Source: a virus (Duplodnaviria > Caudoviricetes). Taken from it: a stretch of DNA of 64,000 nucleotides. Positions 3,414-7,692 of the stretch are shown in pieces. The DNA is taken from the IMG/VR virus record IMGVR_UViG_3300042992_001693, positions 1-64,000 of that record; one strand, written 5' to 3'. Numbering within the stretch: the first letter of the stretch is position 1; each line of letters begins with the position of its first letter. The position numbers and the translations under genes are program-made. The notes under the pieces were generated by a model, which worked only from the letters and a program-made list of their open reading frames with translations, was not told the origin of the DNA and did not search any database.

Positions 3414-4091
3414 TTAGTTTTTTATTAGTTTCCAACCACATTTAGTCTGTAGTTGTCTTCCTTGTTTTAAATGATTGAATGCACCTATAGATAATCCTGT
3501 TTTTTTAGACATATCTGTCAAAGATAATTCCAATGTTTCTAAAGTATACACATTAAACCATTTAATTTTATTGAGTTCGTTTTTTGTTAAACTCATTTTA
3601 TTTTTAGAATCTTCTTTGTGTGTATAAGATGGTCTGACATATCCTTTTTGTTTTTTTATCTGCCAACTTTTTTTAGCCCAAGCACTCCTATTTTCTGTTG
3701 TAGCTTTTACCATGTTATTTAAATTTTTATTATTATGCCAATATGTTTTTAAAGATTTTGATATTTTTAATTTAGTTTCTTCTGATGGTATACCACCATT
3801 ACCACCCTCTGTTAGATTATAACCATTAGGAGAAATAGTATTGTGGTTATTTATATAATAAATTTCTTTATCGCAACACTCTTTAATTGAATTACAAGTT
3901 TCTAAAACTTCCCAATCAAAGTTATCAATACCATACTTACGTATTGCTTGTTTAAAAAGATAAAAATAATGTTTATTAGAAGGTGAATTTGCTTTACATA
4001 AATGCGCTTTCTTTCTTTCTTCTAAAGTTTTTGTAGTATATCCTATATACTGTTTTCCATTAATTTTATTAGTAACCATATATACAATCAT
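3414..4091 (-). CDS. GIY-YIG homing endonuclease (free-standing, NUMOD-like tail)
   Basis: IVYMVTNKINGKQYIG, LFKQAIRKYG..NF.WEVLE, E..YI......PNGYN, GG.GG...SEETK.KIS. Confidence 0.9.
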   Translation of the reverse strand: MIVYMVTNKINGKQYIGYTTKTLEERKKAHLCKANSPSNKHYFYLFKQAIRKYGIDNFDWEVLETCNSIKECCDKEIYYINNHNTISPNGYNLTEGGNGGIPSEETKLKISKSLKTYWHNNKNLNNMVKATTENRSAWAKKSWQIKKQKGYVRPSYTHKEDSKNKMSLTKNELNKIKWFNVYTLETLELSLTDMSKKTGLSIGAFNHLKQGRQLQTKCGWKLIKN

Positions 4092-4364: not shown

Positions 4365-4439
4365 TGGAGCCGATTGTCAGATTCGAACCAACGACCTACT
4401 CATTACAAATGAGTTGCACTACCACTGTGCTAAATCGGC
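4365..4439 (-). tRNA. trnT: tRNA-Thr(TGT)
   Basis: GCCGATT/AATCGGC acceptor, ACTCA-TTTGTAA-TGAGT, GGTTCGAAT, CCA. Confidence 0.95.
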
Positions 4440-4445
4440 TAAAAA

Positions 4446-4521
4446 TGGCTCCAAAGGTTGGGATCGAACCAACGACCTAGAAGTTAACAGCTTCCCGCTC
4501 GTTCCACTGAGCTACTTTGGA
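4446..4521 (-). tRNA. trnN: tRNA-Asn(GTT)
   Basis: TCCAAAG/CTTTGGA acceptor, GGAAG-CTGTTAA-CTTCT, GGTTCGATC, CCA. Confidence 0.95.
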
Positions 4522-4677: not shown

Positions 4678-5856
4678 TTATATATCATCTATTACTTGTA
4701 ATGGAAAATATCCAGATTTATGATTAAAATTTGGATACATTTTTACCATTATTCTTGTAATTGGCAGTCCGTCTGTTTTTATTTTACCCTTTTCACCATA
4801 TATTTTTAAATGTTTGTGACAAACTAATAAATCTCTTTTAAAATCACTTAATTTGACCATCTGACCATTTTCAAACTTTACAATTTTTTGACCATCGAGA
4901 ATTTCACCATACATTTTGTCGTCATATTGATGTATTTCATTAAACTCTGTATTGAATATATACCCATCCCCTGGAATAATAGTGTATATATCATTCTTTT
5001 GCATGTTTTCTAGCAGTTTTAATGTCTCATATTGAGACATTTTTTCTTCTAACAGTGGGATAATGTTGGCTGTTCCGTTTGAATTTGTAGTGTAATAATA
5101 CATTGAGATATTTTTAGGTAAATTCAGATATTTAACATAATTCAAAGCTCTATTTTTATCTATTTTATTTTTATTTTTTGCTATATCTTCAAAGTTTAAG
5201 TTTTTAAGATATTCATATTCATGAATAAAACTTATTTTTCTAGCTTTAATATCCATATAACTATTCAAAAGTTTAGGAATATCTGTATTGTAAAATGTAT
5301 GCATTTTTTCATTTCCTACTATTTTATAAAGATCATGTATACTGCTGTGTTTAATATTACTAACATCTACACTGTATTCATATTCACCAGATCTTGTTTT
5401 TGGATATAAAAAAATAAAACGTTCTCCGTGCTCATCATCTACTTCTTCTATATAAATTAATTTGTTTATTTTAGATTCAATATTTTTTAATTTTATATTA
5501 ATAGTTTTTAATATATTATTTATGCGCTCATCTAAATATTTTTTTCTTTTTTTATATTCTTCGATTTTATTGTCGTCTAAATCATAATCATCTTCTCTAA
5601 AATCATCTATTCCGATTAATATAGCCGTTGGTTTTTTATTTAAATGTTGTAATACTATACCTTCATTTGAATTATATTCTTTGGTCTTATATTTTATAGA
5701 TTTATTATCATACATTAAAGTTATTCCATAACCAGTGAATGATTGATTTGGTAATCTTGAATCTATGCTCACATTGGTTCCTCTGCGCAACCCATTTTTT
5801 AAAATAAATTCTAAGTCATCTTCATTACGTAATGTATGTATGATACCATCAATCAT
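4678..5856 (-). CDS. late-promoter hypothetical protein, possible ADP-ribosyltransferase-like N-terminus
   Basis: 392 aa; TAAATA-N6-ATG; N-terminal IIHTL...ILKNGL pattern. Confidence 0.55.
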   Translation of the reverse strand: MIDGIIHTLRNEDDLEFILKNGLRRGTNVSIDSRLPNQSFTGYGITLMYDNKSIKYKTKEYNSNEGIVLQHLNKKPTAILIGIDDFREDDYDLDDNKIEEYKKRKKYLDERINNILKTINIKLKNIESKINKLIYIEEVDDEHGERFIFLYPKTRSGEYEYSVDVSNIKHSSIHDLYKIVGNEKMHTFYNTDIPKLLNSYMDIKARKISFIHEYEYLKNLNFEDIAKNKNKIDKNRALNYVKYLNLPKNISMYYYTTNSNGTANIIPLLEEKMSQYETLKLLENMQKNDIYTIIPGDGYIFNTEFNEIHQYDDKMYGEILDGQKIVKFENGQMVKLSDFKRDLLVCHKHLKIYGEKGKIKTDGLPITRIMVKMYPNFNHKSGYFPLQVIDDI

Positions 5857-6910: not shown

Positions 6911-6996
<86 letters not shown>

Positions 6997-7023
6997 AATA
7001 ATAAAATTGGTGGACGCGAGGAG

Positions 7024-7233
7024 CATCACACTATGGTTTTCACCACCAGATTTCTCTGTTTGTGCGCTGGACTATGCCTTTACCTTAGTATTTTTACTTT
7101 AGGTAGGTGATTATAGTCTCTACACCTTCTCATTATCTGAGCTTGGCTCGGCATTGGGACGGATATTATTCCAGACCGTTCACCGAATTTACACCTTACT
7201 AACTATTCGTTTCCAAATAGCAGACCCTCATTA
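7024..7233 (-). mobile_element. group I intron (IC3-like, no ORF), 210 nt, in the tmRNA T-loop
   Basis: P AAATTCGGTGAA, Q AATGCCGAGCCAAGC, R GAAGGTGTAGAGACTA, S AAGGCATAGTCC; P3 AGGTG/CACCT, P7 GACTA/TAGTC, P8 TACCT/AGGTA, GAAA-capped P2 and P9; upstream exon ends in U, intron ends in G. Confidence 0.92.
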
Positions 7234-7428
7234 AGTTGAACTCCTGTCCTCTATCAACTTACATTAACCTTCAAACATGCTTATATTGTCTCGTTAAGGT
7301 GAGACTTTCCTGTTAGGGACGACCGATTTCTCTGCCATCCTCCACCAATGTATTAGACAGAATACATACTGTTTTATTACCTGTTTTGTATCCAAGAGCA
7401 GAGCAGGTTTATCTCTTGGCGTATTTGC

Positions 7429-7509
7429 TTAGGCAGCTAAAGCAAGTTCGCCTTGTGGGGCGAAAACGCGATTAGCAATACCACGCACAGCGTTAACAAT
7501 TCTGTTGCC
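7429..7509 (-). other. tmRNA tag reading frame (A)GNRIVNAVRGIANRVFAPQGELALAA*
   Basis: ATAAAC resume context followed by GGC; 26 codons ending GCT GCC TAA. Confidence 0.85.
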
Positions 7510-7614
7510 GTTTATGTTTTTTTGATCAGCTTTTTAAGAGGCCAACTGATCAACCTCTACATGCTAGTTGAATGCTTATCAATACAGTCGAAACCAGAAC
7601 GCGCCCGATAAAAT

Positions 7615-7692
7615 TGGTTGCGGGTTTCGGAATTGCACCGAAACTACTTCTGCTTATGAGACAGATCCAGCACTACTACTGGTTGACCCGCG
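7615..7692 (-). tRNA. trnM: tRNA-Met(CAT), initiator-like acceptor
   Basis: C1:A72 mismatch (CGCGGGT/ACCCGCA-A-CCA), TCTGT-CTCATAA-GCAGA (lacks the three GC pairs), unusual TGCAATT T-loop. Confidence 0.85.

Follow-up and report, generated by a model that had tools for sequence, protein, structure and literature searches.

The window analysed here, a 64,000-nt stretch of viral DNA (positions 1 to 64,000 of IMG/VR record IMGVR_UViG_3300042992_001693), contains a phage tmRNA gene that is split in its T-loop by a 210-nt group I intron. Judged from its sequence, the locus is very probably a functional intron-form tmRNA gene whose intron most likely comes from a family of phage tRNA introns. It is apparently the first phage example of a gene type that has already been catalogued; in an incomplete literature search, we found no paper describing an intron-form tmRNA of a phage. 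What makes the gene notable is that it is phage-borne, that its intron occupies a rare T-loop subsite (subsite 8) and that the closest kin of this intron are phage tRNA introns. It is not a new kind of system. With the intron in place, making this phage's ribosome-rescue RNA would involve splicing as an extra step, and because the mechanism is already known the advance is modest.

Among the products encoded in the window are rIIA, rIIB, a tail sheath and further virion proteins, together with a TilS-like PP-loop enzyme and UvdE; the DNA comes from an uncultured T4-like myovirus. The phage genome is probably about 200 kb in size; the nearest IMG/VR fragment is rated 16% complete by CheckV at 34 kb. 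A megablast search of the 12 kb flanking the tmRNA gene against GenBank phages returned no match.

A tmRNA gene in two exons

Both exons are on the minus strand. Exon 1 (7606..7234, 373 nt) carries the 5' strand of the acceptor stem (GGGCGCG), the pseudoknot region, the tag reading frame, the 5' strand of the T-stem and the entire 7-nt T-loop, so that it ends ...AGGAG-UUCAACU. The remaining 16 nt form exon 2 (7023..7008), which supplies the 3' strands of the T-stem (CUCCU) and acceptor stem (CGCGUCC), the discriminator A and the CCA. The gene is embedded in a tRNA cluster, and T4-type phages have tRNA clusters of a similar kind. ARAGORN finds seven tRNAs in the window. One of them, tRNA-Met(CAU) (7615..7692, minus strand), is 8 nt upstream of the tmRNA 5' end; another, tRNA-Tyr(GUA) (6911..6996, minus strand), which was also detected with RF00005, is 11 nt downstream of the CCA. 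This tight spacing suggests that the tmRNA is made and processed together with the phage tRNA cluster.

The covariance model RF00023 matches the minus strand at 7598..7232 with 78.4 bits (E=1e-28), above its gathering score of 47, and the alignment ends inside the T-loop. ARAGORN calls no tmRNA in the unspliced DNA. When 7233..7024 is removed and the exons are joined, it calls a complete tmRNA of 389 nt with the T-arm AGGAG-UUCAACU-CUCCU. The acceptor strands GGGCGCG and CGCGUCC pair only after exon joining, and the resulting stem includes a G3:U70 pair (G7604.U7014), the identity pair for alanine, and is followed by the discriminator A and CCA. Standard tools thus miss the gene, in that ARAGORN reports nothing and Rfam returns a truncated tmRNA and a sub-threshold intron. 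Phage intron-form tmRNAs are therefore probably under-counted.

Using rIIB as a synteny anchor, we compared 12 related viral loci. In one of them, L005, whose rIIB is 81% identical to that of the window, the tmRNA is uninterrupted and full length (RF00023, 135.2 bits). Exon 1 is 88% identical to this allele and exon 2 has the same sequence as its 3' end. The L005 junction, ...GGAGTTCGACT↓CTCCTCGCGTCCACCA (the arrow marks the insertion point here and below), is the predicted ligation product. The final base is T in exon 1 and G in the intron, which leaves one possible placement for the 210-nt insertion. A single pair of boundaries combines a terminal G with restoration of the 7-nt loop, and it is the same pair as that fixed by the L005 allele.

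Uninterrupted tmRNAs also occur in L009 and L012. The one in L012 (5320-5673) has the T-loop GGCAGUU instead of UUCRANU, was missed by ARAGORN and is directly followed by a nuclease gene. The split gene itself is present in three other IMG/VR contigs from different metagenomes, with an intron that is 100% identical and an exon 1 that differs in one contig by two substitutions. Among other viral contigs, only those of the window's own phage group share the T-loop, guide and core arrangement, and a metagenome scan for further alleles gave one chance match with no tmRNA there.

The tag reading frame (7429..7509, minus strand; positions 98-178 of the joined tmRNA in the ARAGORN call) runs from the resume codon GGC to the stop, GNRIVNAVRGIANRVFAPQGELALAA. 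It encodes 26 residues ending LALAA; tmRNA tags are usually about 10 residues long. The frame is preserved in four phage lineages, represented by the window, L005, L009 and L012 (the last translated by hand). The tags form a recognizable family, being GN[NR]IV...ALAA in the window and L005, GNNKIV...ALAA in L009 and GKNNIV...ALTA in L012. The window tag begins with Gly-Asn, as do the Saprospiraceae tmRNA tags GNSYALAA and GNTQYAMAA, which hints at a Bacteroidota-type origin or host. Five related viral records, including one that is 87% complete, were searched for SmpB (PF01668) and had none, which is consistent with use of the host SmpB.

Phage-encoded tmRNAs, such as the mycobacteriophage forms, have been mentioned before (PMC11915505). 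The window gene resembles them in being a phage-borne ssrA, here inside a tRNA cluster, and differs from them in its interrupting intron and its unusually long tag.

The intron and its predicted splicing

The intron (7233..7024, minus strand) contains no open reading frame, has helices P1 to P10 and is exactly absent from L005. A local RF00028 search matches the minus strand at 7249..7044 with 43.2 bits (E=1.4e-9), a score below the gathering score of 50. The internal guide sequence (7224..7229, minus strand) reads GAG followed by GGU, the first triplet being the P10 guide for the 3' exon CUC and the second the P1 guide for the 5' exon ACU. P1 therefore consists of three base pairs, ACU/GGU, between exon positions -3..-1 and intron positions 8-10, with a U.G pair at the splice site (U7234 with the G at intron position 8). 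The P10 guide is at intron positions 5-7, and the terminal G is at 7024.

The remaining helices could all be mapped. In intron positions, they are P2 (14-31, with a GAAA loop), P3 (38-42 with 125-129), P4 (47-52 with 82-87), P5 (57-58 with 76-77, plus window-specific pairs within 60-74), P6/P6a (88-109), P7 (114 and 116-119 with 161-165, A115 being bulged), P8 (130-152) and P9.0 (169-172 with 203-206), followed by P9 and P9a, two hairpins capped by GAAA; the loops L2, L9 and L9a are thus all GAAA. The 5' strand of P7, the guanosine-binding helix, is GAGACU with its bulged A (7115..7120, minus strand), and it is invariant in all six aligned family members. It pairs with the family-invariant 3' strand AGUCC (7069..7073, minus strand) to form a pseudoknot with P3. 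Only 5 nt separate P7 from the 3' strand of P3, so there is no P7.1/P7.2. With its compact core lacking P5abc and P7.1/P7.2, its P2 and P9.0/P9 and its GNRA loops, the intron belongs to what we take to be subgroup IC3. The IC3 traits seen are the compact core, the GAAA-capped loops and a core pattern that is common to tRNA introns.

These results bear out most of the original prediction, which had described a phage tmRNA split in its T-loop by a group I intron, a T-arm and alanine acceptor restored by removal of 7024..7233, and an intron with complete P, Q, R and S elements, a 3-bp P1 with a U:G pair, GAG/CTC P10 potential and a terminal G. The split gene is supported by both Rfam models and by ARAGORN after joining, the restored arm by the 389-nt call and the L005 junction, the core by the mapped helices and an invariant P7, and the splice-site elements by direct reading. 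Of the checks proposed with it, the RF00023 search matched, the RF00028 search matched under its gathering score, and the survey of related phages for intron-less alleles led to L005 and its exact predicted junction.

Comparison of six family members, the window and five homologs, indicates that this structure is maintained. Pair cells are paired in 95% of cases, versus 34-41% when the partners are slid. Compensatory changes on both sides are found in 29 of 54 pairs, which none of 500 shuffles reached; this count is somewhat biased because the pair structure was taken from the window's own sequence, and the five other sequences retain the pairs. P7 does not vary among the six, P4 hardly varies, and all of them have the splice-site U.G. 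The minimum-free-energy fold of the intron has a z-score of -2.36. We interpret these patterns to indicate that the intron is a complete ribozyme under selection. Its P1 is limited to three exon base pairs because the T-loop of the window has an A where L005 has a G (AACU versus GACU), and a P1 this short could make splicing inefficient.

From these features we infer splicing, charging and rescue in the following way. The tmRNA would be transcribed together with the neighbouring tRNAs. The intron would then fold, its guide GGU pairing with the last T-loop bases ACU to place the U.G at the splice site and a guanosine being bound in P7. It would excise itself by two transesterifications, with the GAG/CUC pairing of P10 aligning the 3' exon. 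Ligation would remake the T-arm and allow the acceptor stem with G3:U70 to form. The 389-nt RNA could then accept alanine and, together with host SmpB, free stalled ribosomes, leaving the 26-residue tag ending ALAA on the proteins. It is reasonable to suppose that tmRNA function depends on splicing.

Two other fates of the insertion have to be weighed. It might be splicing-dead, making the phage tmRNA a recently inactivated pseudogene. The 3-bp pairing with the exon, an Rfam intron score (43.2 bits) under gathering and a region that varies among siblings through a nuclease-cassette indel would all fit such decay. We nevertheless consider it quite improbable, since all core helices and the guanosine-binding P7 are intact, the family-invariant columns are kept and the exons retain every tmRNA feature. 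Moreover, the gene persists in four assemblies (the window and three others), and the P10 guide fits the new 3' exon (GAG/CUC), compared with AUG/CAU in the closest relative.

Alternatively, RNases might remove the insert and leave an unspliced, two-piece tmRNA, and such tmRNAs are functional in several bacterial lineages (PMC11915505). This is the least probable explanation that we considered. What is inserted is a full group I ribozyme that covaries, has a U.G pair and a terminal G, and carries P1 and P10 guides matching the exons; removal by RNases would make the conservation of these features purposeless. In addition, nothing but the T-stem (5 bp) and the acceptor stem (7 bp) would keep the 16-nt 3' piece in place. 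Our preferred reading remains a one-piece tmRNA that is restored by splicing.

Relatives and probable origin of the intron

Intron-form tmRNA genes, whose T-psi-C loop carries a group I intron, were reportedly described by Williams in 2002. A 2025 census of bacterial and archaeal genomes lists 883 unique sequences from 21 phyla, with introns at four T-loop subsites and several independent T-loop invasions inferred (PMC11915505). Most of these introns are at T-loop position 7, and position 8 is occupied only in Saprospiraceae, in 14 instances (PMC11915505). The T-loop intron of the Clostridium botulinum tmRNA self-splices in vitro (PMC2729099). The census makes one statement of the original prediction outdated, namely that such introns are rare and described in C. 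botulinum. A second, that the intron disrupts a common integrase target at the 3' end of ssrA, has no visible bearing on the tmRNA gene of a T4-like phage. Membership in the phage tRNA-intron family and the position at the rare subsite 8 go beyond what had been predicted.

The window gene shares with intron-form tmRNAs in general its one-piece form, a group I intron in the T-loop, the U at position -1, the terminal G and the encoded CCA. The Saprospiraceae are the closest match in position. Group I introns were found in 33 of 141 genomes of this family, and four of these introns abut a truncated tmRNA match. In L152 and L153 the arrangement is GCGAG-TTCGACT↓intron↓CTCGC..., and the introns start with the guide GAG-GGUC; a brute-force splice search set no boundaries in L154 and L155. 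From the first two, position 8 of the census corresponds to the junction after loop nucleotide 7, as in the window, where the intron similarly follows T-loop nucleotide 7 and precedes the first base of the 3' T-stem strand (UUCAACU↓intron↓CUCCU). In other respects the two differ, the window intron being phage-borne, shorter (210 nt versus 284-291 nt) and remote in sequence. It also lacks a P7.1 region, which the main intron class has according to the census (PMC11915505). Its nearest relatives are tRNA introns.

These relatives were found through the core of the ribozyme. A 22-nt core segment has exact matches in 10 viral contigs, and the homologs, which are 76-82% identical to the window intron, sit in the anticodon loops of phage tRNA genes. 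The host gene is tRNA-Leu(UAA) in L012, L015 and the huge phage LR756501, tRNA(CAU) in L022, a Leu-like tRNA in L023 and a Lys tRNA in L021. Among GenBank phages, the only close relative is the intron core in the 735-kb genome of LR756501, inside tRNA-Leu(UAA). A two-block core pattern that includes the P7 5' strand recovered at least 120 loci from a bacterial genome collection. Among the matches listed, 106 of 120 are in tRNA genes (54 in Leu(UAA), 15 in CAU, 6 in Arg(CCU) and others elsewhere) and none is in a tmRNA, a check of the 14 loci without a tRNA context, and of the two Saprospiraceae loci as well, having shown no tmRNA. Group I introns that interrupt the anticodon loops of bacterial tRNAs have been mapped previously (bioRxiv 10.1101/2020.01.27.920355). 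The window intron shares with those of tRNA-Leu(UAA), tRNA(CAU) and tRNA-Arg(CCU) the core blocks, the compact architecture and the GAAA-capped P2 and P9. It differs from them in its host gene, a tmRNA, in its site at the T-loop/stem junction and in a P10 guide fitted to the new 3' exon. Within the window, nhmmer at maximum sensitivity found only the tmRNA copy and no donor intron.

Across the family, the guides track the exons. The P1 guide follows the 5' exon (GGU for ACU; GGGC for GCCU in L021) and the P10 guide follows the 3' exon (GAG/CUC in the window, AUG/CAU in L022). The 5' target ACU is common to the window, L022, L023 and L021. The correspondence with L022 extends to five bases, as its target, GACU↓C, is also the sequence of the intron-less tmRNA allele at the T-loop/stem junction (GACU↓C); the window now reads AACU↓C. 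A profile of the phage family scores phage tRNA introns at 165-202 bits and the Saprospiraceae tmRNA introns at 10-21 bits. A careful maximum-likelihood search with 107 introns placed the window intron in a clade with L022 and L023 (99/83), which L015 and L021 join at the next level (100/99). The intron most likely originated in the phage tRNA-intron family, whose members are inserted after U33/U34 in anticodon loops, and L022 is the closest of them.

The alternative origin is a single invasion of subsite 8, shared with the Saprospiraceae tmRNA introns and reaching the phage by way of, for example, a host tmRNA instead of a phage tRNA gene. Arguing for this, L152 and L153 have the same insertion point, after T-loop nucleotide 7, and the same guide, GAG-GGUC, and the window and Saprospiraceae introns all fall within one 33-member starred clade. 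Forcing the window and the Saprospiraceae pair together cost 39 lnL units, and the AU test did not reject the joint clade (p=0.164); a value of p=0.74 from a quick tree was set aside because its free search was under-optimised, and the careful search was used instead. Counter to a shared invasion, an identical guide is demanded by the identical target ACU↓CUC, the profile scores of the Saprospiraceae introns are far below those of the phage tRNA introns and the best tree places the window with L022 and L023. The intron is also missing in the sister phage L005, which points to a recent gain within phages. On balance we regard the shared invasion as unlikely. The reading with better support, and the one that we favour short of statistical proof, is that a phage tRNA intron invaded this site separately.

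A diverged intron of the same family was also noticed in a tRNA gene of L004 (15379-15649), L002 and L005 (15702-15975), which ARAGORN assigns to Thr or Asn. The equivalent place in the window (4365-4521) holds only intron-less tRNA-Asn and tRNA-Thr genes. Phages that share about 98% identity in that stretch thus differ in whether the intron is present.

The neighbouring nuclease family and other possible mobile elements

The spacer between the tmRNA and tRNA-Tyr (6997..7007) is empty in the window. At this place L001-L004, L016, L018 and L019 have a cassette of about 640 bp, as seen by tblastn, in the ORF list and by alignment. Its gene encodes a free-standing protein of 193 amino acids (L004:13313-13894) and, in these siblings, lies between the intron-containing tmRNA and tRNA-Tyr. 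It begins 58 nt after the split tmRNA, runs up to tRNA-Tyr and is present in every sibling contig of the window's group. The protein is homologous to the ORF that directly follows the tmRNA in L012 and L009. The nuclease matches phrog_3322, phrog_374, phrog_1035 and phrog_3118, which are endonuclease, HNH and endonuclease VII families. A Pfam search with the tmRNA-adjacent ORF of L012 gave no match, and only PHROGs recognise the nuclease family.

At least 33 of 76 related viral loci (L159-L234) have a tmRNA beside a nuclease homolog, and most of these tmRNAs have ordinary, uninterrupted T-arms. In many loci, L203, L177, L199 and L223 among them, the tmRNA is separated from the nuclease gene by a degenerate repeat of its own 3'-terminal segment. 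One further phage tmRNA beside the same nuclease family, L204:1957-2497 (minus strand), has a T-loop group I intron. It differs from the intron of the window in that it starts ...TCGGGCCGTCA... in mid-loop, with an ambiguous junction (either an 8-nt loop or a non-U at -1). The tmRNA match at L198:273-603 stops within the T-loop and is followed by the intron-start sequence of L204, and no intron was called there.

The arrangement recalls collaborative homing, as known for an ORF-less intron in the cyanophage psbA gene and the free-standing endonuclease F-CphI. Similar to that system, the intron-containing gene is followed in sibling genomes, at a distance of 58 nt, by a gene of HNH/endonuclease VII-like type. 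Unlike psbA and F-CphI, most nuclease-adjacent tmRNAs are uninterrupted, and the window lacks this putative homing nuclease. Three of the four possible combinations of intron and nuclease (both, intron only and neither) were seen in sister genomes. The intron may shield the T-arm DNA from the nuclease or travel with it, a suggestion that we keep tentative because most nuclease-adjacent tmRNAs have ordinary T-arms.

One possible history, which we put forward with more doubt than confidence, combines these elements. The intron may recently have jumped from the anticodon loop of a phage tRNA (GACU↓C) to the T-loop/stem junction of the tmRNA (GACU↓C), likely by reverse splicing with retuning of P10. 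It might now be kept or spread because its insertion interrupts the DNA site targeted by a family of free-standing HNH homing nucleases specialised on phage tmRNA genes, in the manner of collaborative homing on an RNA gene. The locus brings together an intron-less sister allele, a candidate donor lineage of phage tRNA introns with a common 5-base target and a polymorphic neighbouring homing nuclease. This combination makes the route of intron site-switching experimentally testable.

The same nuclease family is not confined to tmRNA genes. In L173, L178, L179, L181, L183, L187 and L189, its members are beside RAGATH-9, RAGATH-20 or RAGATH-22 RNAs. Further group I introns (51-87 bits) are near rIIB or directly beside nuclease homologs, at L013:17562-17890 and in L169, L171, L188 and L195; a splice search on the introns of the latter four found no tRNA or tmRNA host gene.

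The tRNA cluster of the window has other possible signs of mobile DNA. Inside it is a gene for a SegE-like homing endonuclease of the GIY-YIG type, with a NUMOD3 motif (3414-4091, minus strand), for which segB in the tRNA region of T4 is a parallel. In addition, an ORF of 392 amino acids (4678-5856, minus strand) has no Pfam or PHROG match and occupies about 1.2 kb of DNA that L004, otherwise 96-98% identical, does not have. This DNA may have been inserted into the cluster as a mobile element.
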